A DNA stretch of 57,079 nucleotides from an uncultured Holosporaceae bacterium (lineage in GTDB: Bacteria; Pseudomonadota; Alphaproteobacteria; UBA7879; UBA5542). The position numbers and the translations under genes are program-made. Shown here piece after piece: positions 2,594 to 56,995 of the stretch (position 1 is the stretch's first letter; every line of letters begins with the position of its first letter). Below the pieces are notes generated by a model that saw only the letters and a list, made by a program, of their open reading frames with translations, did not search any database and was not told where the DNA came from. The DNA lies in the NCBI GenBank assembly GCA_964515175.1, contig CAZEUR010000003.1, positions 1 through 57,079 of the forward strand, written 5' to 3'.

Positions 2594-2601
2594 GGGAGAC
2601 C

Positions 2602-4185: not shown

Positions 4186-4191
4186 AGGTCC

Positions 4192-4515: not shown

Positions 4516-4576
4516 TCAGGTCTCCTTAAAAAAATTTTATTATGATTACCATGTTTGAGGAAGAGACTCAAGGATA

Positions 4577-6297: not shown

Positions 6298-7043
6298 ACC
6301 ATTAAATTCTTGAAGGCTTTTTTAATATTGGCCTCTGTCAAAATTTTTGAAGTTTTTCCCCATCCCACACATTGACGACCCAGGAGGACTGTCTCGGGGA
6401 AATATTTTTCTACAAGATCCAAATTATGAAGAGCCACTAAAACCGTCTTGCCCTGACGATTCCAATCCAAAATAAATTTAATCAAATGAGTGCATGTTTG
6501 AGTGTCGATGGCCGTAAAAGGTTCATCCAAAATAATCAATGAGGCATCCTGCATAAAAATTCGGGCGAAAAGCATGCGTTGGAACTGTCCTCCAGAAAGA
6601 GATCCGATAAGTCTATTCTCAAATCCATTTAATCCTACTTTCTCAAGAGTTTTTTTGATCAATATAATCTGTTCTGGCGTATAAGCTTTAAAAGCACCTA
6701 CTTGAGCTAGAAGCCCCATTCCTACCACGTCAAATACCGTTAAGGGAAAACTGGTATCAAATTCATTCTTTTGGGGAAGATAAGCTGTATCACAGAGATT
6801 TTTGCAGTAATGAGTAACGGATCCTTTCGAAGGTCGAATAAGTTTTTGAAGTGCTTTAATAAATGTGCTTTTCCCACCCCCATTGGGCCCAATAATGGCC
6901 GTTAGGCTTCCTGGTTCAAAGGTGCCAGAAATATTTTCCAAGGCCAAAGTTTCATGATAAGAAACAGTTAGCTCTTTAACCTGAATTTTATTTGTATGGG
7001 AATGCGCGTGCATCAGAGAATAGCCCAAAAAATAGCACCCCAT
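6294..7043 (-). CDS. znuC: metal ABC transporter ATP-binding protein (ZnuC family)
   Basis: Walker A GPNGGGKST, ABC signature LSGGQFQR, Walker B LIILDEP. The start is uncertain: an alternative ATG at 7013 gives MHAHSHTNK. Confidence 0.88.
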   Translation of the reverse strand: MGCYFLGYSLMHAHSHTNKIQVKELTVSYHETLALENISGTFEPGSLTAIIGPNGGGKSTFIKALQKLIRPSKGSVTHYCKNLCDTAYLPQKNEFDTSFPLTVFDVVGMGLLAQVGAFKAYTPEQIILIKKTLEKVGLNGFENRLIGSLSGGQFQRMLFARIFMQDASLIILDEPFTAIDTQTCTHLIKFILDWNRQGKTVLVALHNLDLVEKYFPETVLLGRQCVGWGKTSKILTEANIKKAFKNLMV

Positions 7044-7110
7044 AAAAGGAGGATAAGGGGAAGAATTCGAAGAAGTCTCTGGAAAAAACTATAAAAAAGA
7101 GGGGACATCA

Positions 7111-8652
7111 TCACTCTTTAGAAGACTTGAACTCTTTAACAAACTTTTCAAGAATTTCTGACAATTTTCCGGCTACTTTTTCTGTGAGTCCATCCTTGTG
7201 TTCTAGATCCCTCAGAAGAGTCTTATGACTACGATGCATAAAAGACAGAAGTTTGGATTGGAATTCTCCAATTTGAGACTTCTCCAGGGGGGATAAAAAC
7301 CCATGGACGCCTGCAAACAAAACGACCACCTCTTCAGAAACAGAAAGAGGTGCGTATTGAGGTTGTTTTAAAAGCTCAGACAGACGTTCTCCTCGATGTA
7401 AGAGTTTTAAGGTATTCTCATCAAGATCTGACGCAAACTGAGAAAACGTTGCCATTTCTCGATATTGAGCCAGTTCAAGCTTCAAAGTTCCTGCCACTTG
7501 TTTCATGGCTTTGGTTTGGGCCGCAGATCCAATACGACTCACAGATAACCCCACGTTAATGGCGGGGCGAAACCCTTGGTAGAAGAGCTCTGTTTCCAAA
7601 AATATTTGACCATCTGTTATAGAAATTACATTTGTGGGGATATAAGCAGAAACATCTCCCGATTGCGTCTCAATAATGGGAAGAGCCGTTAGGGAACCCC
7701 CTCCTTTTTCATTGCTTAATTTAGCTGCCCGCTCTAACAATCGGGAATGCAAAAAGAAAATGTCTCCAGGATACGCTTCCCGTCCAGGAGGTCTTCTGAG
7801 CAGCAAAGAAATCTGGCGATAGGCAACCGCCTGTTTTGAAAGGTCATCATAAATGATGAGAGCATGCATCCCGTTGTCTCGAAAATATTCGCCCATGGCG
7901 CATCCTGTATAGGGAGCTAGGAACTGGAGAGAGGCAGGATCAGAGGCAGTGGCCGCCACAATAATGGAATACTCCATGGCGCCTCGTTCTTCTAAAATTT
8001 TTACGAGCTGTGCAACGGACGATCTTTTTTGACCAATGGCCACATAAATACAAAAAACCTGGCTATCTTTTGACCCTGTGTCATTAGAAGCTTTTTGGTT
8101 TAGGATTGTATCGACGGCAAGGGCTGTCTTTCCTGTTTGTCGATCGCCAATGATCAGTTCTCTTTGGCCCCGACCAATAGGGACCAAACTGTCGATGGAT
8201 TTAATGCCCGTTTGCAGAGGCTCATTCACAGATTGACGGTCGATAATGCCGGGAGCTGCGGATTCGATGGGCATTAAAGTTGTATCTTTCAAGGGACCTT
8301 TCCCATCGATAGGGTTTCCAAGAGCGTCGACTACACGTCCGAGCAATCCCATGCCGGAAGGAACCTTAATGACAGATCCCGTGGAATATACCATCATGCC
8401 TTCATTTACAGAGCGATTTCCTCCAAAAACAACAGCACCAACAGTATCTTCATCCAAATTTAAGGCCATTCCCATGACGTCATTTTCAAAACGGAGCATT
8501 TCTCCAGCAGCCACACTATCCAATCCATAAATGGTGGCAATGCCGTCACCTACTGAAATGACTTTGCCCGCTTTTTCTAGATGAGTTTTTTTATCGAAAT
8601 CTTTAATTCGTTCTTTAATAATTTCGAGCATTTCTGAGGAATTTAAGGCCAT
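7111..8652 (-). CDS. atpA: F0F1 ATP synthase subunit alpha
   Basis: 513 aa with P-loop GDRQTGKTA. Sequence is conserved alpha-subunit type throughout. Confidence 0.98.
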
Positions 8653-9198
8653 TTAAGCTCCTATTCTGTGGCGTTGCAATTGATCAAGTTGACTTTTTAT
8701 GGAGGCATCCATGTAAAAAGACTCGGCCATTAGGGTGAATCCACCATAAATACTGGAATCAATTTTATAAATAATTTCAACCTTTTTATCAAAAATCTTC
8801 TCCAGTTTTCCTTTTAAGGATTTTATGGAAGGGGACGAAATCAGATCCTTTTTTGCCAGAGTCACAGTAGCTTTTACATGATTTGTTTCTGCTAAAAATA
8901 AAGCCTCATAGGCTGCCATAATCTCCACAATGTGATGAATATGCTTGAGGTCAATTAAAATTTTTAAAAAGCGCATTGCTTCTGGAGAAAGTTTTAAGCG
9001 CGGGAGTGCGGCCAGCTTATCTTCATCGGAGAAAAGAGGATTGCAAAAAATCTCCCGCAAAGAGTCATCCATAAGAAGTTTTTTTAATTTCTCTAGGGAA
9101 TTGAATATAGATTTAAGTTTTGATTTATCTCTCTTGTATGTTTCAAGCAAACCAAGAGCGCAACTTTCAACTATTTTCTTGTCTTTACTTTGAAGCAT
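8653..9198 (-). CDS. atpH: F0F1 ATP synthase subunit delta (OSCP)
   Basis: 181-aa ORF directly abutting the atpA start, with an OSCP-like C-terminus (IDSSIYGGFTLMAESFYMDASIKSQL). Confidence 0.88.
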   Translation of the reverse strand: MLQSKDKKIVESCALGLLETYKRDKSKLKSIFNSLEKLKKLLMDDSLREIFCNPLFSDEDKLAALPRLKLSPEAMRFLKILIDLKHIHHIVEIMAAYEALFLAETNHVKATVTLAKKDLISSPSIKSLKGKLEKIFDKKVEIIYKIDSSIYGGFTLMAESFYMDASIKSQLDQLQRHRIGA

Positions 9199-9781
9199 GA
9201 ATCTTTGTATTTCCTTCAGGGTCTACCCATCCAATATTACCATCTTGCCGCAAATATACCAAATTCAATCCGCCATGTCCTTTATTTCGGAACAAAAGGG
9301 CTGGTTTTTCTCCAAGGTCCATCCGCATAACCGCTTCTCCCACCGTGAGTGTTGGGATGCAATAAGCGACTTCCGCCACAATGGCCGGCTGTTTTTGCTC
9401 TGTTATCTCTTCTGCTTCTGCTGTTTCGTCATAAGAGGTATCTAAAATGTACTGAATTGCTTTCTCTTCCTTGGAAAGATCATGATGCATGTGATGATCT
9501 TTTAGACGCTCTTTATATCTGCGCAGATTATGCTCTATTTTATGGAGAGCTCTATCGCTGGCGATATAGCCATCTTCTCCCATTTCTGTTCCGCGTATGG
9601 TAATGCGGCCCTGATGCACCTCAATATAGGCTTTAATTAAAGGACCTTGTTTCTCTAAAGTAACGTGAGAATCAACGGCGTAATCAAAATATTTGTTTAT
9701 TATTTTATTCAGACGGTCCTTGATATGGCTTTGAAGGCTTTCTCCCAAGTCCACATGTTTTCCAGTAATGGCTATCTGCAT
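9185..9781 (-). CDS. hpf: ribosome hibernation-promoting factor, long form
   Basis: MQIAITGKHVDLGESLQSHIKDRL N-terminal S30AE domain plus a C-terminal dimerisation domain (ALLFRNKGHGGLNLVYLRQDGNIGWV). Starts 1 nt after the lptB stop. Confidence 0.9.
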   Translation of the reverse strand: MQIAITGKHVDLGESLQSHIKDRLNKIINKYFDYAVDSHVTLEKQGPLIKAYIEVHQGRITIRGTEMGEDGYIASDRALHKIEHNLRRYKERLKDHHMHHDLSKEEKAIQYILDTSYDETAEAEEITEQKQPAIVAEVAYCIPTLTVGEAVMRMDLGEKPALLFRNKGHGGLNLVYLRQDGNIGWVDPEGNTKIHASK

Positions 9782-9782
9782 G

Positions 9783-10556
9783 TTATTTCCCTTTCTTTTT
9801 TTTGGTTAATATAAAATCTTCTCCCAAGTAGACGCGGCGCACTTCCTTGTGGGCTACAATATCTTCTGGGCGTCCCTCTGCTAAAATTTTTCCTTCGTTT
9901 AAAATATAGGCTCGATCCACAAGGGCCAAGGTTTCTCTCACGTTATGGTCTGTTATAAGAATTCCAATGCCGCGGTCCTTTAGATGCAGGACAAGTTCTC
10001 GGATATCATTGACGGCAATGGGATCTATACCTGCAAGAGGCTCATCAAACAGAATGAATTGTGGGTTGTTAGCAAGGCTGCGCGCAATTTCCACACGACG
10101 TCGTTCCCCTCCTGAGAGAGAAAGGGCAGAACTTCTGCGAATATGGGTAATGGAAAACTCCCCCAACAGGGATTCCAGTTTTCTTTCTCGTTTATCCCGG
10201 TCTGGTTCCGCCGCCTCTAAAGCCACCCGGATATTATCTTCAACAGTCATTCCTCTGAAAATGGATGCTTCTTGAGGGAGGTACCCAATTCCTAAACGGG
10301 CGCGACGATACATGGGAAGAGATCCTATATCCTGGCCATCCAAAGTGACTTTTCCATGATCTGGCTTTATAAGGCCGCATAAAATATAAAAACAGGTGGT
10401 TTTCCCCGCACCATTGGGGCCTAATAAAGCAACAACTTCTCCCTGCTTCACGTGGACAGAGACGTTCTTTAAAATAGATTTTTCATGGTAGGACTTGCTA
10501 ATGGCCTCAGCGGCGAGAGTGCTTCCTGATAATTTTTTTCCGTCAGTCTTGGGCAT
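9783..10556 (-). CDS. lptB: LPS export ABC transporter ATP-binding protein LptB
   Basis: Walker [23 protein letters not shown], Walker B FILFDEP, LptB-type [11 protein letters not shown] and a C-terminal extension. Confidence 0.92.
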
Positions 10557-10633
10557 CTTTCACTACAATGAACTTATAAACACTTCTTAGGAGATATCAC
10601 AAAATCTCTGCGCTGGCTAAAGATTTCTGCGGT

Positions 10634-11899
10634 TTAAATAGAAACCTTTTTAAAATTTTCCGGAAATTTTACGTTTCCCCACATGTTCTTAATATCCATG
10701 ATAACACAATAGGGAACTCCCAGGGTCCTAAAATCTTTTTCTGTAAAATCCAGAAATTCTTTATGAGGGACGGCGCCAACAATACAGTCATAAGTTCCTA
10801 GCTCAGCCTGAAGTTTAAGGGTGATATCATAAAAATCCAGGGCGTCATGCGGGTTGGCATGTGGATCTAAAACATCTACGACATATCCCTGAGATTGAAA
10901 ATCTTTGACCATATCTACAACTTTTGTATTGCGCAGATCTGGGATATTTTCTTTGAAAGTAAGCCCACAGATTAAAATTTTCTTTTGTAATCTTGAAGAA
11001 GAAACTTGCTCTAAAGCCGTATGGGCAAGATTTACAAAAAATCCAGCCATAGCATCATTAATTTTGCGCCCAGCAAGAATCACTTCTGGATGATGTCCCA
11101 TTTTTTCGGAATAATCGGCAAGATAGTAGGGATCTACGCCGATGCAATGTCCGCCCACAAGGCCGGGAGAAAAGGGGAGAAAATTCCATTTTGTTCGAGC
11201 GGCATCCAGGACATCGTAGATGGAAATATCTTCCTTGTTGAAAATGGCTGTAATTTCATTCACAAAGGCGATGTTGATGTCTCTTTGAGCGTTTTCAATC
11301 ACCTTGGCCGCTTCTGCTGTTTTGATGCTTTTAGCTTCAAAAACTTCGGTGATTTTTCCATAAATGTGGGAAAGTTTTTTTGTAATTTCAGGATTTTGTC
11401 CCGCTACAATTTTAGTGATTCTATGAATCGTATGGTTTCTATCTCCAGGATTTATTCTTTCTGGAGAGTAGCCTAGAAAGAAATCTTTACCACTTGCAAG
11501 CCCAGATGCTTTTTCAAGGACAGCGCCGCAGACAGTTTCTGTGACGCCGGGATAGACAGTGCTTTCGAAGACAACAATGGCTTTTTTTGAGAGAACGCTT
11601 CCAATCATTTGGGATGCCTTTTCCAAAAGACTTAAATCTGGCTTGTTCTGGGAGTCAACGGGAGTTGGGACGGTTATGATATAGACATCCTGATTCTTCA
11701 GGCGTTCCAAACAATCAGTTGTCTGTAAGCCAGAAACTTTCAACTCTTTTTGTGTAAGCTCTCCTGTGCGATCGAATCCTCTTTGCAGTTCTTCTATGCG
11801 TAGAGAATCTACATCAAACCCTATGGTTGTAAAATGCTTGGACAGAGCTGTGGCAAGAGGGAGTCCAACATAACCAAGTCCCACAACTGCTATTTTCAT
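10634..11899 (-). CDS. nucleotide-sugar 6-dehydrogenase (UDP-GlcNAc/GalNAc dehydrogenase-like, TviB/WbpO/CapL group)
   Basis: 421 aa with N-terminal Rossmann MKIAVVGLGYVGLP and catalytic-Cys motif GLVGGHCIGVDPYY. Substrate assignment rests on family resemblance only. Confidence 0.85.
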   Translation of the reverse strand: MKIAVVGLGYVGLPLATALSKHFTTIGFDVDSLRIEELQRGFDRTGELTQKELKVSGLQTTDCLERLKNQDVYIITVPTPVDSQNKPDLSLLEKASQMIGSVLSKKAIVVFESTVYPGVTETVCGAVLEKASGLASGKDFFLGYSPERINPGDRNHTIHRITKIVAGQNPEITKKLSHIYGKITEVFEAKSIKTAEAAKVIENAQRDINIAFVNEITAIFNKEDISIYDVLDAARTKWNFLPFSPGLVGGHCIGVDPYYLADYSEKMGHHPEVILAGRKINDAMAGFFVNLAHTALEQVSSSRLQKKILICGLTFKENIPDLRNTKVVDMVKDFQSQGYVVDVLDPHANPHDALDFYDITLKLQAELGTYDCIVGAVPHKEFLDFTEKDFRTLGVPYCVIMDIKNMWGNVKFPENFKKVSI

Positions 11900-11906
11900 G
11901 ACTCTC

Positions 11907-12383
11907 CTAAATGCTCAGATTTTGCATTTGCTTTTTCAGCAGGTGTTCTTGCTGAGCTTTTGTTAATCTCTTTGAGACAGAGGTCTGGACCAAAGAGCAG
12001 GCCTTTTGTAATAAAGATTCCTGAATTTCCAGATACATTTTTTGTTGAAGTGCATGGAAACGGTTTTCCAGCTCCTGCGTTTGGTTTTTCTTGAGAAGAA
12101 TGATTTTTTTTTGTGTATCCTCAAGAATCTTTTTGGACTCTTCTTGCGTTTGTTTTTCAAGATTCATCAGAGATTCTCGGGTTTTATGAAGTTTTGTTTT
12201 TTCATTTGATAAGATTTTTTGAGCTTCTTCGTGCAGTTCTGCCACTTCCTTAATTTGGCGCGAAATCGTAGAAGATCTTTCATCAAGCTGGAGAGCAACG
12301 ATTCTGTAAAATCGTTTGCCACAAACAGCTACGAAAAGAACAAAAGAAACAAGAATCCAAAGTTGAGGGTCGTGGAGTATCAT
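11907..12383 (-). CDS. atpF: F0F1 ATP synthase subunit b
   Basis: 158 aa with one N-terminal TM and a long charged helix. It is the second of two b-type genes after atpE, as in alphaproteobacteria. Confidence 0.85.
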   Translation of the reverse strand: MILHDPQLWILVSFVLFVAVCGKRFYRIVALQLDERSSTISRQIKEVAELHEEAQKILSNEKTKLHKTRESLMNLEKQTQEESKKILEDTQKKIILLKKNQTQELENRFHALQQKMYLEIQESLLQKACSLVQTSVSKRLTKAQQEHLLKKQMQNLSI

Positions 12384-12865
12384 TTCGCCCTCGCTTTTTT
12401 TGTAGTCTTTTCAGACTGAAGAGAAGAGGAGACTGAGGCCATCAACTTATCCATAATAAGCTCTGCAAGAGCAGATTCTTCCTTTTTTAAGGTAGCTGTC
12501 AATTCTTTTGCTTCTTTTTGAAGAGAGACTTCAAAATCACCCATTTTTTTTAGGGATTCGTGGTGAAAATCTTCCTCAAACTTCCTGAGTCTCTTGGTAG
12601 ATTCCTGAGCGGCTTTTGTCAAAGCTTCTTCCATTTCTTTTTGTTTCTTGGCAACAAAGAGAGAGCTTTGAAGTCTCAGTTCGTCTGTCTCTATCTTAAA
12701 TTGCTCTATTTCTTTCAATTTCTCTTGGAGTTTTCGCCGGCGCTTTTTAAAGAGGGTTTCCATCCGAGGTTCGATGAGAAAGCGCATGCCTGTGTACAAA
12801 AGGCAAAAAGCTACGCCCAACCAGAAAAGCTGAGGAATATAGAGGCTTGCATCTAATTGTGGCAT
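12380..12865 (-). CDS. atpF2: F0F1 ATP synthase subunit b-prime
   Basis: 161 aa, MPQLD..YIPQLFWL N-terminus typical of b-prime, with one TM plus a coiled coil. 4-nt overlap with atpF. Confidence 0.85.
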   Translation of the reverse strand: MPQLDASLYIPQLFWLGVAFCLLYTGMRFLIEPRMETLFKKRRRKLQEKLKEIEQFKIETDELRLQSSLFVAKKQKEMEEALTKAAQESTKRLRKFEEDFHHESLKKMGDFEVSLQKEAKELTATLKKEESALAELIMDKLMASVSSSLQSEKTTKKARAK

Positions 12866-12871
12866 CTAAAC

Positions 12872-13096
12872 CTATTTAAACAGTATAAGAAAGGCAATGA
12901 GAAGGGCGAATAGAGCGACCGCTTCTGTTAACGCAAACCCCAAAATGCCAATGGCAAAAACGTCCTTGCGCACTTCCGGGTTGCGCGCGATAGAACTAAT
13001 AAGGGTTGAAAAAATGCTCCCAATTCCAAGGCCTACCCCAAGCAAGGGAAATACGGCAAGTCCGGCTCCGATATATTTTGCTGCTTCTGCGTCCAT
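12872..13096 (-). CDS. atpE: F0F1 ATP synthase subunit c
   Basis: 74-aa hairpin proteolipid with ARNPE loop and the carboxylate in [11 protein letters not shown]. Confidence 0.95.
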
Positions 13097-13122
13097 TCTA
13101 AATCTCCTTTTCTACTATCTTA

Positions 13123-13845
13123 TCAATGCAAATGGATTGCGTCATTCAAATACAGGCACGTGAGTACAGTAAACACGTATGCTTGCAAAAATGCCACAAG
13201 AAATTCGAATCCTATTAATACACTATTTAGGATGATGGTGGAAAGCCCAAAAATGCCGAGGCTAATGGTAAAGAGCGCAAAAACCTTGAGCATGGTGTGT
13301 CCTGCCATGAGATTGGCGAACAAACGCACGGATAAACTGACGGGTCTTGAAAGATAAGAGATAATTTCAATGGGAATGAGAATGGGGGCCATAAGGAGCG
13401 GGGCGCCCTCTGGCATGAACAGCTTCAAAAATTTAAACCCATGTTTGAAAATGCCAATCCCTAAAACTATTAGAAAAACGATGGAAGCGATTCCAAATGT
13501 GAGGATAAGCTGGCTGGTAAACGTGAAGGTATAGGGGAGCATCCCCAAAAGATTTCCAAACAAAATGAAGAAAAATAACGAAGAAATAAAAGGCAAATAG
13601 GGGCGTCCCTTATCTCCCACATTTTCTTCCAAGAGATTTGCTACAAACTCGTAAGAAAGTTCCACAAAAGATTGAAGCCTTCCGGGAACTAAGCTTGATC
13701 GGAAGGTTCCTGCCCAAAAGAGAAGCAGGCTGAAGGCGCCTGCGAGCACCATAAAGAGGGCAGAGTTTGTAAAAGAAAGATCCACGTTGCCCCAGTAGAG
13801 AGGGATCAATCGTTTCACTTCAAATTGGTGGAGAGGACTTTCCAT
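13123..13845 (-). CDS. atpB: F0F1 ATP synthase subunit a
   Basis: Subunit a with conserved SLSVRLFANLMAGH. The track ORF extends to 13917 over atpI. I prefer the ATG at 13845 (MESPLHQFEVKRL), 10 nt after the atpI stop. Confidence 0.93.
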   Translation of the reverse strand: MESPLHQFEVKRLIPLYWGNVDLSFTNSALFMVLAGAFSLLLFWAGTFRSSLVPGRLQSFVELSYEFVANLLEENVGDKGRPYLPFISSLFFFILFGNLLGMLPYTFTFTSQLILTFGIASIVFLIVLGIGIFKHGFKFLKLFMPEGAPLLMAPILIPIEIISYLSRPVSLSVRLFANLMAGHTMLKVFALFTISLGIFGLSTIILNSVLIGFEFLVAFLQAYVFTVLTCLYLNDAIHLH

Positions 13846-13855
13846 CGTAATAATC

Positions 13856-14146
13856 CTATTTCTTGAGTGTCTCAAGCCCGAAGCCAAACCCAGCTTTACA
13901 GAGAGACCTGTACACATTTAACATGCCGGCACTAGAGCCAAGCAAGAATCCAATAATGAGCCCCCAATGGGCTGTGCCCATATAATAATCAAAAGCTAGC
14001 CCAAGTCCAGCCCCAACAATAATACCCGCTAACATATCCGCGCTGGCACGCCAGGCCATATGAGAAAACTCAGCGGGGCCTTTCTTAGGAGGATCAAGTT
14101 CTCGTTTGACCTTTTCATATCGGTCTTGAAAAGATTTCTTTCTCAT
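13856..14146 (-). CDS. atpI: ATP synthase protein I (AtpI-like small membrane protein)
   Basis: 96 aa with two hydrophobic helices (LAGIIVGAGLGLAFDYY, LIIGFLLGSSAGMLNVY), immediately upstream of atpB. Confidence 0.75.
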   Translation of the reverse strand: MRKKSFQDRYEKVKRELDPPKKGPAEFSHMAWRASADMLAGIIVGAGLGLAFDYYMGTAHWGLIIGFLLGSSAGMLNVYRSLCKAGFGFGLETLKK

Positions 14147-14906: not shown

Positions 14907-16583
14907 ATGATTAAGCACCCGGCATTTCTTATTTTTTTTGCACTTACACTTTCTGGAAATGCTTCTTTGCATCCCGAAATGGGGCCTCCTCATATTTTGG
15001 ATCCAAAGGGAATTTTAATGGATGAGGAAGGGCTTCCAAAGCATGTTGTGCAGGGTCGATATGAGGTCTTTTCTCCTTCTGAAGACTATAAAGAACTTCA
15101 GATTCTCCTTAATAGAATCACAACAGAATTAGGAAAAAACCCAAATGCAAAACAGCGGAAATTTTTGGAAAAAATGCTTTTCACAACTCAGGAGGGGCTC
15201 TTGCATCTTTATTTAAGAGATCGAAACATGCATGCGCGAGAAAATAAGAAAGTAAGAGAATATGCTTCTCCGGGAAGCAAGAAAAAAAGCACCCAACCTT
15301 TTAATCTAGCGGGTGATAAGAGTGGGGCTATTTTATGGGCTCATCGCCAAGGCATTTTGGGACAAGGGGTGGATGTTTGGGTGCTGGAGAATTATGGGAC
15401 TTTGCAAAAAGAAGGTTTGGCACTCTCTAAGCTTGTATCTGTTATTAAAAGCAGCCAACCTTCCCTTCTGCAGGGACCAAGAGATGGTTATGATATTAGA
15501 GAAGAAAGCCTTGCTCACGCGGCAGAGGTGGCGGGGGTTGTTTATCAAATAGCACCTCGAGCGGATATCCATTTAATTGGGGACAGTAATTTTTCGGCTA
15601 TCTTTCAGGCAAATCGTCCCCATCGGGGCCAGGTCAATAACCCTTTTTCAGAGAAAGATGTTGTCTTAAATTGGTCGGGATCCAAAGGACTTTCGACTGT
15701 CTCTGTCGACTATCAAATCGGACATGTTCGAGGTTTCCTTGAAGAGCGAGGCAAAAAGTATAGAGATCTTCTCGTAAAGGCAATTCCTAATGCGGGAGAT
15801 GGATACAATCCACCTCTAGAGAGGCGTATAGATAGAAAGTGGATGAAAGAAAGGAGTAACATAATAAGCCAAACTGACCCCACTTTTTCTGAGCATATTT
15901 TAAAGCCTTATGCATCACAAATCATTTTGGCTGGAAACATCAGACAATTTGGGCCTGCTTTAGTTCCTTTTTTACAAGATGATGAGTTGCAAAATTTAGC
16001 CCAGGAAAGATTGTTATTTGCCTGGGGTGAAGAAGTTTTAGTGCCCTTTATTGGATATACAGGTATTGAGATAAAAGGGGGGACATCTATTTCAGCCCCC
16101 ACTATTGCGGGGGCAGCGGCTCTTATTAAAAGCAAATATCCTTATCTAACTTGTGAGGAGGCAGGCGAGATTTTACTCGAATCAGCGGAGAAGACTTTTT
16201 GGCAAGTATCTAGCAACATCTCGTTTATTTATGACCCCGAAGATTTTGAAGAAGAATCTCAAGAGGATTTAGGGGAAGCTTTTGCAAAGCTTTTTGGGGA
16301 AGCTTTTGTTCAACAATCGGTAAAACACCGGCTTCCTTCTATAGTTAAAACGGAACCATTTACTTCCAGCATATATGGGCGTGGTATCCTCAATCTTAGG
16401 CGTGCTTTTATTTATGCAGAAATTAAAGATAAGCATCGTGGCTTTACGGCTGAGCAATTGAAGCCTCTCTTTAAAGCAGCAGTGCGAGAACAAGAAGATA
16501 AAGCAGCCCGCACGATCCAAAGAGCTTTTCGGGCGAATATAGGTAAGTTTAAGTCAAGAGCTGGAGAAGGAGGCAAAGCATAA
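14907..16583 (+). CDS. secreted subtilase-like (peptidase S8 fold) protein with Glu at the catalytic Asp position
   Basis: Signal peptide present. S8 motifs: GQGVDVWVLENYG (Asp box, but E161), SLAHAAEVAG (H204), ILAGN (N344), GGTSISAPTIAGAAALI (S394), YGRGILNLRRAF. Confidence 0.8.
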   Translation: MIKHPAFLIFFALTLSGNASLHPEMGPPHILDPKGILMDEEGLPKHVVQGRYEVFSPSEDYKELQILLNRITTELGKNPNAKQRKFLEKMLFTTQEGLLHLYLRDRNMHARENKKVREYASPGSKKKSTQPFNLAGDKSGAILWAHRQGILGQGVDVWVLENYGTLQKEGLALSKLVSVIKSSQPSLLQGPRDGYDIREESLAHAAEVAGVVYQIAPRADIHLIGDSNFSAIFQANRPHRGQVNNPFSEKDVVLNWSGSKGLSTVSVDYQIGHVRGFLEERGKKYRDLLVKAIPNAGDGYNPPLERRIDRKWMKERSNIISQTDPTFSEHILKPYASQIILAGNIRQFGPALVPFLQDDELQNLAQERLLFAWGEEVLVPFIGYTGIEIKGGTSISAPTIAGAAALIKSKYPYLTCEEAGEILLESAEKTFWQVSSNISFIYDPEDFEEESQEDLGEAFAKLFGEAFVQQSVKHRLPSIVKTEPFTSSIYGRGILNLRRAFIYAEIKDKHRGFTAEQLKPLFKAAVREQEDKAARTIQRAFRANIGKFKSRAGEGGKA

Positions 16584-18491: not shown

Positions 18492-21400
18492 TTAAAGCTT
18501 CTTTGTAAATTTCACTGTAGCTTCTTGAAGGGTGTATTTGGATCCAAACTCTCCGGTCCAGGATGCACTCAAAGAATAACCATCATTAAATTGCCATGTG
18601 GATTGAACACCCGGGGCAATATCTGTTGTTGTGACCGTAGTGGACTCAAAGCTTCCGGCGCTTGGGGAGATAATCTTCCCTTTCTTGATTGGTTTCTTAT
18701 TCACGATACCTAACGTAAGTCCAGGCTTCCAAGTAAAATCCTTGCACTCATAGAGTCGGGTTAAATTGAGGCCAACCTCTGATCTGAGCATGCTTGCTTC
18801 ATTTTTGTTCCAGTAAGTTGCGCCAGATCCTGTTTCTTGATATCCATACTGAGTCGAGTAAGCATAGTCAAAAGTTGTATAGGCTCTCACTTTATACCCT
18901 TTAACATCAAAGGTATAACCCCCTCCTATTTTTGGCGTTAGCTGATACCCATCATGGTGATTGATGGCAAATTGATTGTTTATGCCTGTATTTCGTGATC
19001 CTTGATATTTTTCTAGCCCCATCAAAATTGAGCCTTCCAGATACCATGGACCTCGGAACCACGTCCCGAAGAAAGTCAGGAATTTATCTTTGATGCTCAT
19101 TTTTCCCTGATTTGAATCAAAATTCAATTTTGTCTGAGCATATCCAAGACCGGCTCCCAAGATCACATCATATCTGACCCTATGGTCAAACCCAGCCAAC
19201 AATCCCCCCGTTCGGGTGTTATATCCAGGAGCTCCTTTATCTGCTGTTTGTCTCAAAGTCATGCCGAAAGGCTGCACCCAGACACCTGTCTTTTCAGTGC
19301 GTGCTGGTGACCATCGCTGGGCATTTTCCGTCGACTCCTTCATCATAGCCCCTTGTGTGAGGCTTAAGAAGTCTTTTGAAAGATCTGGGGCTTTGAGAGG
19401 GTTCCTTGTGAAGCTAGGGGAGGGCTGTCCAAAGTCTCCGCCAGATCCGCCAGGCCCATCTTGAGCATTGGCCCGCGCCACAACCATGGTGCCTCCGATG
19501 GCGAAAGAACTAATGTTTGTTGCAACAGCCTGTACGCTGTTATGGGCACTTGCAGAATTTCTTGCCCCTCCTGTGGCAGGGGGCGTAATGGGGGTTTTAC
19601 TCAGTTTGAACTTTACTTCCGTGTCACCGTTGTTAAAGTGTTTTAGGGCCGCAGTAAAACCGGGCACGTTGTTTAAATTTATAGCATGCAGAGAGTTCGA
19701 GAAGGTAGTATTTCCTGCGTTCTCAAACAATGTATATTCCATATCCTCTGTGTAGGTGCCTGTGGCCCCATTAATGTTTAAAGTGAGATGGCTGAGATCC
19801 AAAGCGGATGTGGCGTCTAGGTAAAATCGTGTGCTATGCTGAGCATCATTAATAGCAACAGTCAAAGTACTTCCTTCCCCAGCAGTGAAATTCGTTAGGC
19901 AATAGTGTTGATTTGCAATGGATATATCTGCGAAGTTTGATATATCAAATGTTCCGCCATTGATCGTGAAAGATCCTCCCGTAGAGGTATTGTCAATAGA
20001 AGACAGAGCTAAAGTGGCGCCGCTTTGAATTGTAGTGGGTTGATTATAATTGCTTTTATTAGGGCCCTCCAAAACAAGCGTTCCGCTGTCAACCTGAATT
20101 CCTATTTGTCCATTAATTTCGCCTCCCAGCGTCAATCTTCCCGAACCCGCCATGACAATCATGCCATAGCTGCTGTTTGTGTCGATACGATAATCAAATC
20201 TATCTGTCTCGGAATTATAGAAAACTAAATTATTGCCGGAACCATTGTCGAAATGAACACCGTTTGTATACCCTAGAGAAGCGCTGGAATCCAGCTCAAG
20301 GGTAGATCCGTTCCGTACATAGGCTCCCGAACTAAAACCATCTCCCTCTGTAAAGGAATATGACAGACGTAAGGTTCCCCCTCCATCAACAGTAACCTTT
20401 GGATTGTTTCCACTAGTAATGGATCCTGTAAGTTGCAGTTTTCCAGAACCATGATGTACTAAAGAAGGGCTTCCGTTACCAAAACTAATGGGTCCATCAT
20501 AGATTTCATACTCTTGGGCGCCAGCATCTGTAAATTGCAGGATGCCGTTCCATCTAGGTGAAAGGCTTCCTGAGAATGGAAAGAGAGTGGATGGCCCCTC
20601 TAGAATGGCTGCTGCTGATGATTGTGAATCTCCGCCTATAATTGCTTCACCCGTGTAGGTGCTTCGTGTCGTGCCGCCCAATATAAGAGCTCCTGAGGAT
20701 AGAGTGAACCCATTCCCCGACCCTGAATCAGTGATTGGACGTTGAAGGGTGACAGATGTACCGGCGTGTGGAATAGAAATCGTGTTGTTCGCCGCAGGTG
20801 ACGTAAGAACAATATTTCCATAATAGCTCGCACTACTCGTGCTATCGGAAAAAGTAAGGGTCCCATTTCCCATCCGAATGGTTGAGGTAGAGGTGCTATC
20901 CCCAGCGGGGATTGTAAGGCCACCACCACTATTAATATCAATCTCTAAGGAATAACTGTTTCCTGGATTTGAAAGAGTTAATGGGGTGCTTTCGACAGCT
21001 ACTTTACCACTTCCTGTTATGGGCCCATGAATATTTATGGAGCCTCCACCACTAATAGTTGTAACATCTGCCCCAGAAGTTCCAAAATCCATATGCGCAT
21101 AGTAATTGACGCTATTATTATCTGTGAGGATAGAGCTGGTCCCCGTATAATTTAGATGTAAATGATCAGGGTGATTTTCGCTTCCAAGATTTCCGTGCGT
21201 GACTGCACTCCTGAAATTAATGGTGTGGTGTGCTCCGGGAAGATCGATGTCATCACTATCAGTCTCATTGTTAGCCACACCAATGCTGCCAACAGAAACG
21301 GTCTGGTTTCCGGAACTTCCAAAAGTTTGCCCGGAAGTGGTGGTGAGAGTGACCGCTCTTATCCTATCGCCAAACACAATCTGGTCCACACTGCCTACTG

Positions 21401-21626
21401 ACGTCGTGTCTAGACCTGCAGAGGTTTGATCAAAGATAATTTTATCACTAGCCCCGGGGGTCCCCCCTGGATCCCAGTTAGTAGTAGTAGTGAAAGCACC
21501 CCCATTATCTTGGGCAAGGCGAGTATAGTCGGTTGTTCCCCACCCATCTGCTGACCCCAAAAGACCTGCCGTCAAGGCTAAAATTGAAACCGATCTTGAA
21601 AGAGAAACTTTCCCCATTCTATACAT
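18492..21626 (-). CDS. autotransporter outer-membrane protein (beta-helical passenger plus C-terminal beta-barrel)
   Basis: 1044 aa with a signal peptide. The passenger has many G-x-G-T-L-x-L repeats (GGGTLRLS, GSGRLTLGG, DSGTLVLEG, SGATLALSS). The last ~280 aa (from TGVWVQPFG..; GLLAGFDHR, LGAGLGYAQ) look like an autotransporter barrel. Confidence 0.88.
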   Translation of the reverse strand: MYRMGKVSLSRSVSILALTAGLLGSADGWGTTDYTRLAQDNGGAFTTTTNWDPGGTPGASDKIIFDQTSAGLDTTSVGSVDQIVFGDRIRAVTLTTTSGQTFGSSGNQTVSVGSIGVANNETDSDDIDLPGAHHTINFRSAVTHGNLGSENHPDHLHLNYTGTSSILTDNNSVNYYAHMDFGTSGADVTTISGGGSINIHGPITGSGKVAVESTPLTLSNPGNSYSLEIDINSGGGLTIPAGDSTSTSTIRMGNGTLTFSDSTSSASYYGNIVLTSPAANNTISIPHAGTSVTLQRPITDSGSGNGFTLSSGALILGGTTRSTYTGEAIIGGDSQSSAAAILEGPSTLFPFSGSLSPRWNGILQFTDAGAQEYEIYDGPISFGNGSPSLVHHGSGKLQLTGSITSGNNPKVTVDGGGTLRLSYSFTEGDGFSSGAYVRNGSTLELDSSASLGYTNGVHFDNGSGNNLVFYNSETDRFDYRIDTNSSYGMIVMAGSGRLTLGGEINGQIGIQVDSGTLVLEGPNKSNYNQPTTIQSGATLALSSIDNTSTGGSFTINGGTFDISNFADISIANQHYCLTNFTAGEGSTLTVAINDAQHSTRFYLDATSALDLSHLTLNINGATGTYTEDMEYTLFENAGNTTFSNSLHAINLNNVPGFTAALKHFNNGDTEVKFKLSKTPITPPATGGARNSASAHNSVQAVATNISSFAIGGTMVVARANAQDGPGGSGGDFGQPSPSFTRNPLKAPDLSKDFLSLTQGAMMKESTENAQRWSPARTEKTGVWVQPFGMTLRQTADKGAPGYNTRTGGLLAGFDHRVRYDVILGAGLGYAQTKLNFDSNQGKMSIKDKFLTFFGTWFRGPWYLEGSILMGLEKYQGSRNTGINNQFAINHHDGYQLTPKIGGGYTFDVKGYKVRAYTTFDYAYSTQYGYQETGSGATYWNKNEASMLRSEVGLNLTRLYECKDFTWKPGLTLGIVNKKPIKKGKIISPSAGSFESTTVTTTDIAPGVQSTWQFNDGYSLSASWTGEFGSKYTLQEATVKFTKKL

Positions 21627-24595: not shown

Positions 24596-25803
24596 AAGAG
24601 GAGTTAAGAAGAATGGCAAAAGCGAAATTTGAGAGAAAGAAGCCACATTGTAACGTGGGAACGATAGGGCACGTGGACCACGGGAAGACGTCCTTGACAG
24701 CGGCGATTACAAAGATTTTGGCGAAGAAGGGATATGCAGAGTTCCGGGCTTATGATCAGATTGACGCAGCGCCAGAAGAGAAAGCAAGAGGGATCACGAT
24801 TTCAACGGCACACGTTGAATATGAAACAGACCCACGGCATTATGCGCATGTGGATTGTCCAGGACACGCAGACTATGTAAAGAACATGATCACCGGAGCG
24901 GCGCAGATGGACGGAGCGATTTTGGTGGTATCAGCAGCAGATGGGCCTATGCCCCAGACACGTGAGCACATAGTGTTGGCGCGTCAGGTGGGAGTGCCTG
25001 CGTTGTGTGTGTTTTTGAACAAGTGCGACATGGTGGACGATCCAGAGTTGTTGGATTTGGTTGAGATGGAAGTGAGGGAGTTGCTGAGTCAGTACAATTT
25101 TCCTGGGGACGAAGTTCCGATCATCAGAGGATCTGCGTTGTGTGCATTGGAAGATAAGAACCCCGAGTTGGGAGAGAATGCAATTTTGAAGTTGATGGAG
25201 AGCGTAGACAGCTATATTCCACAACCTAAGAGAGACATCGACAAGCCGTTTTTGATGCCTGTAGAGGATGTGTTTTCAATATCTGGTCGAGGAACAGTAG
25301 TGACCGGAAGAATCGAGCAAGGTGTTGTGAAGGTTGGAGAAGAGATCGAGATTATCGGGATCAAGCCAACAGTGAAGACGGTGGTGACTGGTGTGGAGAT
25401 GTTCCGTAAGTTGCTGGATCGAGGAGAAGCGGGAGACAACGTTGGGCTTCTTTTGAGGGGGACGAAGAGAGAAGATGTGGAGCGTGGGCAAGTAATGGCA
25501 GCGCCCGGGAGCATCAAGCCACACACGAAGTTTATGTGTGAGGCGTATATCTTGACGAAGGAAGAAGGAGGGCGTCATACACCATTCTTCACGAACTATC
25601 GTCCACAGTTTTATTTCAGAACGACAGATGTGACCGGACAAGTAGTTTTGCCAGCCGGGACAGAGATGGTAATGCCTGGAGATAACATAACAATGGAAGT
25701 GCAATTGATAGCGCCCATTGCGATGAATGAAGGGCTTCGCTTTGCGATCAGAGAAGGTGGTCGTACGGTTGGTGCCGGCGTTGTCTCTAAAATTATTGAG
25801 TAG
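24596..25803 (+). repeat. 1.2-kb direct repeat, copy 1 (tuf plus 17 nt of leader)
   Basis: Same sequence as 41543-42750. The shared block starts at AAGAGGAGTTAAGAAGA and ends at the TAG stop, and the flanks differ. Confidence 0.9.
24613..25803 (+). CDS. tuf: elongation factor Tu (copy 1)
   Basis: 396 aa with [13 protein letters not shown] and NKCD GTPase motifs. Follows tRNA-Tyr/Gly as in the tufB-type locus. Confidence 0.99.
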
Positions 25804-37624: not shown

Positions 37625-37642
37625 AACTATTCAACGTTGAAG

Positions 37643-37679
37643 CGCCACCCCTCCATTGATGGGGTGGCGTTTTTGTTTT
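37643..37679 (+). terminator. rho-independent terminator after rpoC
   Basis: 9-bp GC-rich stem CGCCACCCC/GGGGTGGCG with a 9-nt loop, then TTTTTGTTTT. Confidence 0.8.
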
Positions 37680-38067
37680 GGAAAAGCTTGACGTTTGCAG
37701 ATTGTCTGTGAGATGCTTTGGGGGAGTAAAAGACTGCTCTTAATTTTCTGAAAATTTTTCAGGCAAAAGAACGTTCTGCTGGGGTTTCTGTAAACTAGTT
37801 AATTTTAGACACGTAAATCGAACTTCATAGTTTAAATGGGAGCATTTTCTTATGAGGGGGTGTGATCCAGCCTCTTGACAGCTCAATGAATTAGAATTAC
37901 TTAAGAAGAATGATTTTAAGTTCCTACACTAAGAATTTGTGTTTTCTCTATAAGCGATAAGGCTTTTACCTTTTATAGCTAGTCTTGTGGCACAGAAAGA
38001 TTAGAAGTTATATATCCTCATCATTAGTTATGAAGGTTTTTCTAAGGTTGAATTACGTTCTGGAGTT

Positions 38068-38343
38068 GTGGTCAAAGCAGAGGAGTTTCAAAAGCCTGCT
38101 TATAAAATATGGGTGGATTTTGGCGATGAAATTGGCATTAAACAAGCATCCACCCAAGTTACAAAGCACTATACATCTGAAACTCTCATGGGTCGATTGG
38201 TGATTGGCTGTATTAATCTTGCGCCCCGAAACATTGCAGGGTTCATGTCGGAGTTTTTGTTGGTTGGATTTCCTGATAGCTCTGGTGCTGTCTGTCTTGT
38301 AACAGCGGATCCTGTTGTGCCTAGAGGACAAAAGCTTTTCTAG
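38068..38343 (+). CDS. csaA: tRNA-binding (EMAP/OB-fold) protein, CsaA-like; N-terminus uncertain
   Basis: VVKAEEFQKPAYKIWVDFGDEIGIKQASTQVTKHY...NLAPRNIAGFMSEFLLVG closely resembles CsaA as I recall it. Homology continues upstream in frame to ~38020, where there is no ATG/GTG/TTG. Confidence 0.75.
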   Translation: MVKAEEFQKPAYKIWVDFGDEIGIKQASTQVTKHYTSETLMGRLVIGCINLAPRNIAGFMSEFLLVGFPDSSGAVCLVTADPVVPRGQKLF

Positions 38344-38361
38344 AAGATAGCCTGTTATCCC

Positions 38362-38407
38362 GTCGTCATTTCTAGGGGCGCATCCGGAGATCCCTGGGAA
38401 TGACGAC
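38362..38407. repeat. 46-nt palindromic hairpin element downstream of csaA (REP-like or terminator-like)
   Basis: 16-bp stem: GTCGTCATT+TCTAGGG pairs with CCCTGGG+AATGACGAC (two G-U pairs), with a 14-nt loop. No T-tract follows. Confidence 0.5.
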
Positions 38408-38491
38408 ACGGTTAATAACTTTTTGGAAGGGGTATTAAATTCCTAAAACCTCAAATTATCATAAAAATTTCAACTTTTTTGCAAAATACTC

Positions 38492-38520
38492 TTGACGAAA
38501 CCTTACGCTCTGCCTATTAT
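38492..38520 (+). promoter_or_regulatory. candidate str-operon promoter
   Basis: TTGACG (38492-38497), exactly 17 nt, TATTAT (38515-38520), about 85 nt upstream of the rpsL ATG. Confidence 0.55.
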
Positions 38521-38606
38521 GCGGGACGTTAACTAGTGTTTGAGTCTCTTTATTGACCTCGAAAATGTCAGAAGAGATTGTTTTTTTATTTAGATTTAGG
38601 TGAGTA

Positions 38607-38988: not shown

Positions 38989-39459
38989 ATGTCTCGTCGT
39001 CGTGCCGCAGAAAAACGTGAAATTCTTCCCGATCCAAAGTTCGGGGATAAGGTTGTTGCAAAGTTTGCCAATAGTCTCATGACTCGTGGAAAGAAATCTT
39101 TGGCAGAAAACATCCTTTATGGAGCGTTCGATATCATTCAAAAGAAGTTGGATCGCAATTGTCTTGAGGTTTTCAAGGATGCTTTGGCAAACGTTCGTCC
39201 AGATGTTGAGGTTCGTTCTCGTCGTGTGGGAGGGGCCACGTATCAGGTGCCGACTCCTGTTCCAGGAAACCGGTCTCAAGCTTTGGCTATTCGTTGGATC
39301 ATTGCTATGGCATCCAAGCGGGGCGAAAAGACTATGACAGAAAAAGTTGCTGGTGAATTGATGGATGCTGCCAATAATCGTGGCTCTGCTGTCAAGAAGC
39401 GGGAAGATACCCACAAAATGGCGGATGCAAACCGCGCTTTTGCTCATTATCGGTGGTAG
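38989..39459 (+). CDS. rpsG: 30S ribosomal protein S7
   Basis: [20 protein letters not shown]...[11 protein letters not shown]. Ends with TAG TAG. Confidence 0.99.
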
Positions 39460-39465
39460 TAGAAA

Positions 39466-41541
39466 ATGGCTCGTCAAACCCCTCTCAATAAATACCGTAA
39501 CATAGGAATTATGGCCCACATTGATGCGGGCAAGACAACGACAACAGAGCGTATTCTTTACTACACAGGAAAGTCCCATAAAATTGGTGAGGTGCACGAT
39601 GGTGCGGCCACCATGGATTGGATGGAGCAAGAGCAAGAGCGGGGAATCACTATTACCTCTGCGGCAACAACTTGTTTTTGGAATGATTACCGTATCAACA
39701 TTATCGATACTCCCGGCCACGTAGATTTTACGATCGAAGTTGAGCGGTCTTTACGGGTGCTCGATGGCGCTGTGGCTGTGTTTGACAGTGTGGCAGGAGT
39801 TGAGCCTCAATCTGAGACTGTGTGGCGTCAGGCCAATAAATATCACGTACCACGCATGTGTTTTGTGAACAAAATGGACCGTATCGGAGCAAATTTCTAC
39901 CGCTGTGTGGAAATGATCACTAGCCGTCTTGGGTCCGTTCCGTTGGTTCTTCATTTGCCTATTGGATCTGAATCTGAATTTTCCGGTCTTGTTGACCTTG
40001 TGAAAATGAAAGCCATTCGTTGGTTGGATTAGTCTTTGGGAGCAAAGTTTGTCTACGAAGAGATTCCGGCTGATTTGAAAGAAAAAGCAGCAGAATATCG
40101 CGCGAAGCTTATTGAGCTTGCAGTTGAGATGGACGATGAAGCGCTTGAAAAGTATTTAGAAGGGGAAGAGCCTTCTGAGGAAGTTCTGAAGAAATGTATC
40201 CGTAAGGGAACCATTGCTTTGAAGTTTGTGCCGGTTTTGTGTGGAAGTTCTTTCAAGAATAAGGGTGTTCAGCCTCTTCTGGATGCGGTTGTAGACTTCT
40301 TGCCGTCTCCGTTAGATATTGGATCTGTAAAGGCGACAACCCTTAAGGGAGATGAAGAAGTGGAGCGGAAAGCTTCTGATGATGAGCCTTTTTCTGCTTT
40401 GGCTTTCAAAATTATGAACGATCCTTTTGTGGGAACCTTGACATTTATTCGAGTTTATTCCGGAAAGATTGCTTGTGGAGATCAGGTTTTGAACTCAATT
40501 CGCGACCAAAAAGACAGAATTGGTCGCATGCTTCAGATGCACGCCAATAGTCGGGAAGATGTAAAAGAGGCTTATGCAGGTGACATCATCGCTTTGTGTG
40601 GGATGAAGTCTATTACAACAGGAGAGACTCTATGTGATCCTCTGAAGCCTGTGGTTTTGGAGCGTATGGAATTTCCAGATCCAGTGATTGAAGTGGCTGT
40701 TGAGCCAAAATCTAAGGCTGACCAAGAAAGAATGTCTATGGCCTTAAGTCGGTTGGCGGCAGAAGATCCTTCGTTCCGGGTGAGTGTGGATCATGAATCA
40801 GGTCAGACAGTGATTAAGGGGATGGGAGAGCTCCATCTTGAAATCATCGTGGATCGTATGAAGAGGGAATTTAAGGTGGAAGCAAACGTGGGGGCGCCTC
40901 AGGTTGCTTACCGTGAGACGTTAACGAAGCTTACTGAAATTGACTACACCCATAAAAAGCAAAGTGGTGGTGCGGGTCAATTTGGGCGCGTTAAGATTAT
41001 TTTTGAACCTTTAGAGCCCGGCAGCGGCTTTGTTTTTGAGAACAAGATTGTGGGAGGGGCTATCCCTCGGGAATATATTCCTGCTGTTGGAAAGGGAATT
41101 GAATCTGCTATGACATCTGGTCCTGTGGCCGGGTTCCCTCTTATTGATTTCAAAGCGAGCTTGATAGATGGGGCTTACCACGATGTGGATTCTAGCGCCC
41201 TGGCTTTCGAAATTGCGGGTCGTGCAGCTTTCCGTGAAGGGGCTACAAAGGCGAGCCCTCGATTGCTAGAGCCTATCATGAAGGTTGAAGTCGTGACGCC
41301 GGAAGACTATATGGGAGATATCATTGGAGATCTGAATAGTCGTCGTGGTCAGATCACAGGAATGGAAAGTCAAGCGAATGCGCGGGTTATTTCTGCTATG
41401 GTGCCCCTGGCTAGCATGTTTGGATACGTGAATAATTTGCGGTCCATGAGCCAAGGGCGCGCGCAGTATACAATGCAGTTTGATCACTATGAGCAAGTGC
41501 CGCAAGCTGTGGCGGAACAAGTAAAAGCAAAAGTAGCTTAG
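39466..41541 (+). pseudogene. fusA: elongation factor G, interrupted by one in-frame TAG (40030-40032) and otherwise full length; formally disrupted, functional status unknown
   Basis: Track ORFs 39466-40032 and 40036-41541 are in the same frame. The joined sequence has [18 protein letters not shown] and all EF-G domains. Junction: ...[22 protein letters not shown]. Confidence 0.9.
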
Positions 41542-41542
41542 G

Positions 41543-42750
41543 AAGAGGAGTTAAGAAGAATGGCAAAAGCGAAATTTGAGAGAAAGAAGCCACATTGTAA
41601 CGTGGGAACGATAGGGCACGTGGACCACGGGAAGACGTCCTTGACAGCGGCGATTACAAAGATTTTGGCGAAGAAGGGATATGCAGAGTTCCGGGCTTAT
41701 GATCAGATTGACGCAGCGCCAGAAGAGAAAGCAAGAGGGATCACGATTTCAACGGCACACGTTGAATATGAAACAGACCCACGGCATTATGCGCATGTGG
41801 ATTGTCCAGGACACGCAGACTATGTAAAGAACATGATCACCGGAGCGGCGCAGATGGACGGAGCGATTTTGGTGGTATCAGCAGCAGATGGGCCTATGCC
41901 CCAGACACGTGAGCACATAGTGTTGGCGCGTCAGGTGGGAGTGCCTGCGTTGTGTGTGTTTTTGAACAAGTGCGACATGGTGGACGATCCAGAGTTGTTG
42001 GATTTGGTTGAGATGGAAGTGAGGGAGTTGCTGAGTCAGTACAATTTTCCTGGGGACGAAGTTCCGATCATCAGAGGATCTGCGTTGTGTGCATTGGAAG
42101 ATAAGAACCCCGAGTTGGGAGAGAATGCAATTTTGAAGTTGATGGAGAGCGTAGACAGCTATATTCCACAACCTAAGAGAGACATCGACAAGCCGTTTTT
42201 GATGCCTGTAGAGGATGTGTTTTCAATATCTGGTCGAGGAACAGTAGTGACCGGAAGAATCGAGCAAGGTGTTGTGAAGGTTGGAGAAGAGATCGAGATT
42301 ATCGGGATCAAGCCAACAGTGAAGACGGTGGTGACTGGTGTGGAGATGTTCCGTAAGTTGCTGGATCGAGGAGAAGCGGGAGACAACGTTGGGCTTCTTT
42401 TGAGGGGGACGAAGAGAGAAGATGTGGAGCGTGGGCAAGTAATGGCAGCGCCCGGGAGCATCAAGCCACACACGAAGTTTATGTGTGAGGCGTATATCTT
42501 GACGAAGGAAGAAGGAGGGCGTCATACACCATTCTTCACGAACTATCGTCCACAGTTTTATTTCAGAACGACAGATGTGACCGGACAAGTAGTTTTGCCA
42601 GCCGGGACAGAGATGGTAATGCCTGGAGATAACATAACAATGGAAGTGCAATTGATAGCGCCCATTGCGATGAATGAAGGGCTTCGCTTTGCGATCAGAG
42701 AAGGTGGTCGTACGGTTGGTGCCGGCGTTGTCTCTAAAATTATTGAGTAG
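41543..42750 (+). repeat. 1.2-kb direct repeat, copy 2 (tuf plus 17 nt of leader)
   Basis: Matches 24596-25803. The sense protein is identical, and so are the antisense track ORFs in other frames. Confidence 0.9.
41560..42750 (+). CDS. tuf: elongation factor Tu (copy 2, str operon)
   Basis: 396 aa, identical to copy 1. Follows fusA as in tufA-type loci. Confidence 0.99.
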
Positions 42751-56527: not shown

Positions 56528-56995
56528 TTAGGTGTTTAGTCCCAACATGTGATGGGTAGGATTTACAATAAACCTATTCGGCTCATTTTGCCAAGTTTTT
56601 AGAATGAACTCATAAGGAGTTAATCCCTTAAGAGTTTTGAGTCGTTTGGCAAAGTTATAGGCATTCACAAAGTTGTAGAGGTGCTGTCTGAGCTGATGAT
56701 GATTATCATAGTAGTAGCGTTTAACTGTGGCGTCTTTAAGAGTTCTGTTCATGCGTTCAACCTGACCATTTGTCCAAGGATGCTTAACTTTTGTAAGGCG
56801 ATGCTCAATTTCATTTTCGCAACAGACTCGATCAAAGATATGCATCCAAGCGAATGTATCGACCTTTCGATTGGTAAATTGGATTCCATTATCAGTAAGG
56901 ATCGTATGGATTTTATAAGGGACAGCCTTGATGAGATTGCGTAAAAATTGAGCAGCCTCCATCTTGCCGTGTTTCTCTAGAAGTTCTACATAACG
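56528..56995 (-). mobile_element. IS481-family (rve/DDE integrase) transposase, 3' fragment only
   Basis: ILTDNGIQF (second D) and KHPWTNGQVERMNRTLK (E) are present, with C-terminal GLTPYEFI...GLNT. The reading frame opens just after a TGA at 56996-56998. The N-terminal HTH and first catalytic D are absent, and upstream frames show no transposase-like sequence. Confidence 0.8.

Follow-up and report, generated by a model that had tools for sequence, protein, structure and literature searches.

A premature TAG in the fusA gene of an uncultured alphaproteobacterium is very likely a private base of one metagenomic assembly

When near-identical genomes disagree over an internal-stop pseudogene, the stop is often an assembly artefact, and such artefactual stops depend on the coverage, the sequencing platform and the assembler, the problem being worse at low coverage (Cooley & Wright 2024, PMC11017572). 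The in-frame TAG described here was found in the fusA gene (EF-G) of a contig of 57,079 nt, which was analysed at its full length and is called the window below. This TAG very likely falls into the well-documented category of spurious internal-stop pseudogenes in deposited assemblies, and into no recoding, reassignment or split-gene class. The likeness consists of a single miscall-type change that is absent from a near-identical assembly and falls in a conserved gene, in data that look like data of low coverage. However, the spurious stops of PMC11017572 came from isolate genomes, whereas the window is a metagenome-derived contig, the overall error rate of which was not elevated.

Three other described systems were compared with the locus. 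Nonsense suppression and programmed recoding (suppressor tRNAs, Sec at UGA, Pyl at UAG) resemble it in that an in-frame stop lies in a gene which must be expressed. The window differed from them, as its stop was not conserved, neither a recoding element nor a tRNA with a CUA anticodon was present in the window, TAG was an ordinary terminator here, and a sense allele occurred in the same population. The genuine pseudogenes of symbionts and reduced genomes share with the locus a Holosporales-like lineage and a translation gene bearing a stop. Such pseudogenes, however, accumulate several lesions, whereas zero other differences were recorded in 2,578 bp of the window and the neighbouring genes were intact. 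Compared with the canonical bacterial EF-G of the str operon, the window fusA agreed in domain architecture, in the length of 691 aa, in gene order and in sequence, and departed from it only by the T at position 40030.

The codons at 40021-40041 were read from the window sequence as TGG TTG GAT TAG TCT TTG GGA. The one-frame translation of 39466-41541 gave 692 codons, in which the sole internal stop was at codon 189 and was accompanied only by the normal terminal stop. The features of the region are given below, where P0001 stands for an intact EF-G from a protein collection and L001 for the independently assembled contig that encodes it.

38989-39459, plus strand: rpsG, directly upstream of fusA, ending with TAG TAG
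39466-41541, plus strand: fusA (EF-G) frame, 691 codons and the terminal TAG, interrupted once and, codon 189 aside, equal to P0001
39466-40032, plus strand: N-terminal ORF fragment of 188 aa with an ATG start, G1-G4 present and G5 absent, product P0254
40030-40032, plus strand: TAG in frame as codon 189, with T at 40030 here and G (GAG, Glu) in L001
40030-40034: GANTC (CcrM-type) motif, GAGTC in the intact allele, the first G being the variant base; destroyed in the window
40036-41541, plus strand: C-terminal ORF fragment of 501 aa with a TTG start, in the same frame as the N-terminal ORF, product P0125
41560-42750, plus strand: tuf copy 2, directly downstream of fusA

The domains of the joined protein were assigned through the 100%-identical intact P0001, and PF00009, PF03144, PF22042, PF14492, PF03764 and PF00679 were found. 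Hence, the five-domain architecture of EF-G (GTP_EFTU, D2, EFG_III, EFG_IV, EFG_C) was complete and contained the G1-G5 motifs. Solved EF-G structures matched the joined protein from end to end, the best match being 6not_A with 1131 bits over residues 4-689. The G4 motif NKMD was seen at residues 135-138 of the fusA translation, and G5 was located at about residue 260. Taking the sequence together with general knowledge of EF-G, codon 189 was presumed to lie between G4 and G5, some 20 residues into the G' insertion, instead of at the entry to this insert, where the initial annotation of the window had placed the stop. Its other statements on the frame held. A single TAG in an otherwise intact EF-G with no other lesion was borne out by one internal stop in 691 codons and by the identity to P0001, and the two ORFs were confirmed to share a frame and to give a full EF-G when joined by the translation, by the Pfam matches obtained through P0001 and by the match to 6not_A. 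The TTG start of the 501-aa ORF is a by-product of ORF calling and no true start.

The share of stop-creating changes was computed for the window fusA and amounted to 3.9% of all single substitutions and to 14% of coding-strand G-to-T changes. Therefore, one in-frame stop in one gene was statistically unremarkable, and the TAG is noteworthy solely through the essentiality of fusA.

Further, independent Logan assemblies, which can substitute for the inspection of reads when made from the same runs, were compared with the window. A protein search returned P0001, an intact 691-aa EF-G with Glu at position 189 that matched the joined window protein at 100% identity. It was encoded on L001, a 2,578-bp Logan contig of run SRR14271373. 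L001 was identical to positions 38995-41572 of the window in 2,577 of 2,578 bases, and the sole mismatch was at 40030, where T in the window stood against G in L001; the site was spanned by this one independent contig, from one run. The fusA frame, interrupted in the window by the TAG at 40030-40032, was thus uninterrupted in L001. It had been proposed in the initial annotation that reads with a sense codon at 40030-40032 would make the stop a sequencing artefact, and such a codon was in effect provided by the Logan assembly of SRR14271373, which reads GAG.

The same organism was present in the sibling runs SRR14271365, -66, -72 and -73. Eight Logan contigs gave 24,153 aligned nucleotides, covered 18,596 unique window bases (~18.6 kb) and contained 2 mismatches in total. 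The second mismatch was a synonymous one at position 25155, in codon 181 of tuf copy 1, where the window had GAT and a contig of SRR14271365 (L004) had GAC; this difference may be real population variation. Since only 2 mismatches were recorded in 18.6 kb, the window and the runs were taken to sample one essentially clonal population with an intact fusA. The Logan contigs of the organism were short, mostly of 1-3 kb and 10.3 kb at most, which suggests a low coverage per run.

The products of the interrupted allele were rare. The 501-aa P0125 and the 188-aa P0254 were each recorded once among approximately 15 billion proteins, and only on the window contig. A segment of 199 aa around the site, used as a protein query, gave a best match of 76% identity and no further sequence of the same strain. 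The contig following L008 in SRR14271366 was predicted to start at 39781 by the k-1 = 30 overlap rule, and its predicted partial products, with either allele, were absent from the protein collection. An exact 60-nt pattern from the window had no match in GTDB-representative genome contigs.

To assess the conservation of codon 189, 124 homologues of full or almost full length were aligned. Glu occupied this column in 119 of the 124 and Asp in the remaining 5, with no stops, while the neighbouring W, G and A columns were invariant. An acidic or polar residue one substitution away from TAG had been anticipated in the initial annotation, and an acidic one was thereby confirmed, with GAG in L001 as the sense codon. 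Two relatives of 95% identity, L002 and L003, had GAA at the site. The joined EF-G shared 100% identity with P0001 and 95% with P0002, and the nearest named sequences belonged to Alphaproteobacteria bacterium RIFCSPHIGHO2_01_FULL_41_14 (85%) and Candidatus Bealeia paramacronuclearis (78%). Judged by this one protein, the organism would be an uncultured alphaproteobacterium with Holosporales-like nearest named relatives. A protein-guided scan of genome contigs gave relatives of at most 77% identity among the matches listed, and these were used as a residue panel.

A degenerate DNA pattern for W-L-D-(NAR)-S-L-G-A-K-F was also scanned over public metagenome contigs and gave at least 120 matches; among the matches listed there were 78 with GAG, 41 with GAA and one with TAA. 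Again among the matches listed, 119 were true fusA genes, all with GAG or GAA and with an aligned segment devoid of internal stops. The TAA match (Ga0065711_1058302, 1186-1214) was considered as a recurrence of the stop and rejected, as it showed no similarity to EF-G and no long ORF. It lies in an AT-rich stretch, and the false positives of the degenerate pattern amounted to about 1 in 120 among the matches listed. A conserved stop, as expected for programmed recoding, was found in 0 of the 124 homologues and in 0 of the 119 metagenomic fusA genes listed. In the lineages sampled, the stop at codon 189 is apparently not recurrent.

The context of the gene was ordinary. The ORF map showed the standard order rpsL-rpsG-fusA-tuf-rpsJ with rpoB and rpoC upstream, and the same gene order was observed in the 95%-identical relative L002, in agreement with the str operon position upstream of tuf that had been assigned before. 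The gene lengths in the window and in L002 were equal except for rpsC (226 and 225 aa, respectively) and rpoB (1391 and 1392 aa, respectively). The only broken gene on the contig was fusA; 20 genes of the left arm had Pfam matches and no sign of truncation. An overlapping ORF pair at 13123-14146 was examined as a second broken gene and rejected, being atpB and atpI, which are separate and intact. The segment 41543-42750, comprising tuf copy 2 and the 17 bp upstream of it, was identical over 1,208 bp to 24596-25803, comprising tuf copy 1 and its 17 bp upstream, which is consistent with gene conversion. The Logan contigs were observed to end exactly at this tuf repeat, with a 30-nt overlap.

The usage of stop codons in the window was also determined. 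TAG terminated 10 other genes (a B-type subunit of the ATP synthase, both tuf copies, nusG, rpsG, rpsJ, rplC, rpsC, rplE and rplQ) and fusA itself, and the lengths of the TAG-ended genes were consistent with those of their homologues. The counts were 37 for TAA, 12 for TAG with the internal one included, and 9 for TGA. No other in-frame TAG was found in the conserved genes of the window. TAG was therefore used as a terminator here, and the pattern of a reassigned codon, namely TAG that does not terminate and occurs in frame over many genes, was absent, as had been argued in the initial annotation. Four tRNA genes were found in the window (Arg-CCG, Tyr-GTA, Gly-TCC and Trp-CCA), none of them with a CUA anticodon, and an Rfam search of the window returned only these four tRNAs. 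Nothing relevant on a premature stop in fusA combined with readthrough was found in the literature searched.

The possibility of translation starting behind the stop was evaluated from the Shine-Dalgarno (SD) duplex upstream of TTG 40036, calculated for 20 nt against the anti-SD sequence. The energy was -3.4 kcal/mol; internal fusA positions averaged -3.8 kcal/mol, and the median over 31 real window genes was -6.2. No better in-frame restart was found near TTG 40036. The earlier remark that no SD was visible at this codon agrees with these values, and neither a downstream start bearing a ribosome-binding site nor a conserved split, as expected of a split gene, was observed.

Several explanations in which the TAG is real were weighed against the data. 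The T at 40030 could be a nonsense allele present at an appreciable frequency in the population and tolerated through coexisting intact copies of fusA, which would be carried by the chromosomes of a polyploid cell, by a mixed clonal population or by a second EF-G paralogue. The population has at least one real-looking SNP (tuf 25155 GAT/GAC, SRR14271365), the assembler chose T, hence T was locally dominant in its input, and some of the Holosporales-like relatives (78% for Ca. Bealeia, 85% for the uncultured alphaproteobacterium) are intracellular. Polyploidy occurs in such intracellular bacteria. This explanation was nevertheless considered unlikely, because an independent run showed the intact allele, TAG products were seen nowhere else, and no accompanying changes were present in 2,578 bp, so that neither relaxed selection nor age was indicated. 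Loss of function in a highly expressed essential gene should also be purged fast, and a second fusA was not seen on the 57,079-nt contig. A decaying copy was argued against because there was no other change in the fusA region. It is a very unlikely extension that the TAG is a high-frequency nonsense allele of the only fusA, kept by complementation among multiple chromosomes in a heteroplasmy-like manner or by a new amber suppressor tRNA. If the stop were real and fixed, the bacterium would be living with an amber codon in its sole translocase gene, and either natural suppression or genome copies complementing one another would be suggested.

A real and fixed TAG could also be compatible with full-length EF-G through readthrough or through a suppressor tRNA with a CUA anticodon. 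Although no positive sign of this was found, a suppressor could be encoded elsewhere, the window having just four tRNA genes. None of these four has the CUA anticodon, however, and efficient suppression would extend the 10 other TAG-ended proteins as well as that of fusA. In addition, none of the relatives compared carries a stop at this codon, and the flanks of the TAG were identical to those of the intact allele, so nothing has evolved there to promote readthrough. Basal UAG readthrough in bacteria is about 1% or less, far too low for EF-G, and the explanation was judged highly improbable. A naturally split EF-G of 21 and 55 kDa, re-initiating at TTG 40036, has in its favor an in-frame TTG one codon past the stop. 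Against it, the SD energy at this TTG (-3.4) equalled the internal background and was weaker than that of real genes, no relative was split there, and the gene was one base away from the intact allele with no compensating change. The cut would moreover separate G4 from G5, the N-terminal piece being predicted to be an incomplete GTPase; a split EF-G was thus held to be extremely unlikely. The reassignment of TAG to a sense codon or to pyrrolysine has a practically negligible probability: nothing spoke for it, TAG ended 10 other genes and fusA at lengths matching those of homologues, no other in-frame TAG was present in the conserved genes of the window, and the codon in L001 was GAG. Hence, among the four explanations that the initial annotation had left undecided, a base-call or assembly error was the sole one favored by the evidence. 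Readthrough or suppression found no support, given the lack of a CUA tRNA in the window and of a stop in relatives, and the same applied to re-initiation at TTG 40036, with its SD at background and no split relatives; a nonsense allele backed up by a second paralogue was unnecessary as an explanation.

It is therefore very likely that the T at 40030 is a private, non-representative base of one assembly, and that the organism carries an ordinary fusA, intact and in one piece, with GAG (Glu189). The base was absent from the independent assembly of the same organism, L001 having G at 40030, and it was the sole lesion, one substitution unaccompanied by any sign of relaxed selection. Being private, free of accompanying differences and located at an invariably acidic site of an essential gene, the T was therefore unfiltered by selection, as is typical of an error or of a deleterious mutation that has only just arisen in one template. 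We infer that its source was technical or a rare template, and that most copies in the cells did not carry it. The most likely origin would be an error of the consensus or of the assembly, in a metagenome-assembled contig of low coverage; a single template molecule that was damaged or mutated could, for instance, have been counted repeatedly via overlapping mates or PCR duplicates. No special mechanism, whether recoding, re-initiation or suppression, would then be required. Oxidised guanine (8-oxoguanine) classically leads to G-to-T changes, in vivo as well as during library preparation.

Some points bear on how such a private base entered the consensus. Because assemblers normally take the majority path, the T was locally dominant in the reads behind the contig. 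As a counterpoint to an error, the contig was otherwise very clean, the natural-looking synonymous SNP being the one further discrepancy in 18.6 kb, and the assembly is not generally error-prone. The variant base is the first G of the GANTC motif, which was kept as GAATC in L002 and L003. A base-call error linked to methylation is a candidate cause if long reads contributed; GANTC covers approximately 2% of bases, and its coincidence with the variant site was noticed post hoc. A raw long-read assembly was argued against because no indel-type errors were seen. For curation, it is advisable to regard the window fusA as intact (Glu189, GAG) and the 188-aa and 501-aa ORF fragments in protein databases as artefacts.

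Broken essential genes were also observed in another genome. In the cultured Sphingomonas yabuuchiae (GCA_039535985.1, BAAAYF010000001.1, 1980610-1987572), fusA was present as three ORFs of 147, 320 and 253 aa and tuf as two ORFs of 383 and 45 aa. Evidently, the breaks in these essential genes are assembly errors of the frameshift type.

Several additional observations were made on the window. The spacer between rpoC and rpsL (37625-38606) was longer by about 690 bp than in the relative L002 and contained an ORF with a CsaA-like tRNA-binding domain at ~38005-38343 on the plus strand (PF01588, E = 2.3e-8). Its frame was open from ~38005 with the expected N-terminal residues ISYEGFSKVELRSG, and no ATG, GTG or TTG was found before GTG 38068. 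This ORF could have a non-canonical start or could be a decaying gene. An ORF of 144 aa at 56528-56962 on the minus strand, at the right end of the contig, had an integrase-core domain (rve_3, E = 5e-12). This ORF is probably a remnant or a copy of an IS and may explain why the contig stops there.

The ATP synthase genes (6294-14146, minus strand) had an unusual order. The pair atpH-atpA (9198-7111) was followed by a ZnuC/B/A-type ABC transporter instead of atpG-atpD-atpC, and the F0 genes (atpI, atpB and two B-type subunits; 14146-11907) were apart from atpH, genes for a UDP-glucose dehydrogenase, an ABC ATPase and a hibernation factor lying between them. The arrangement was confirmed by the Logan contig L211 over 1811-12109, the F0 genes beyond 12109 being outside this contig. 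Finally, a 1,044-aa autotransporter was encoded at 18492-21626 on the minus strand (beta-domain match, E = 1e-34), and the 558-aa product of 14907-16583 on the plus strand had just a weak subtilase match; both are possible surface or secreted factors.
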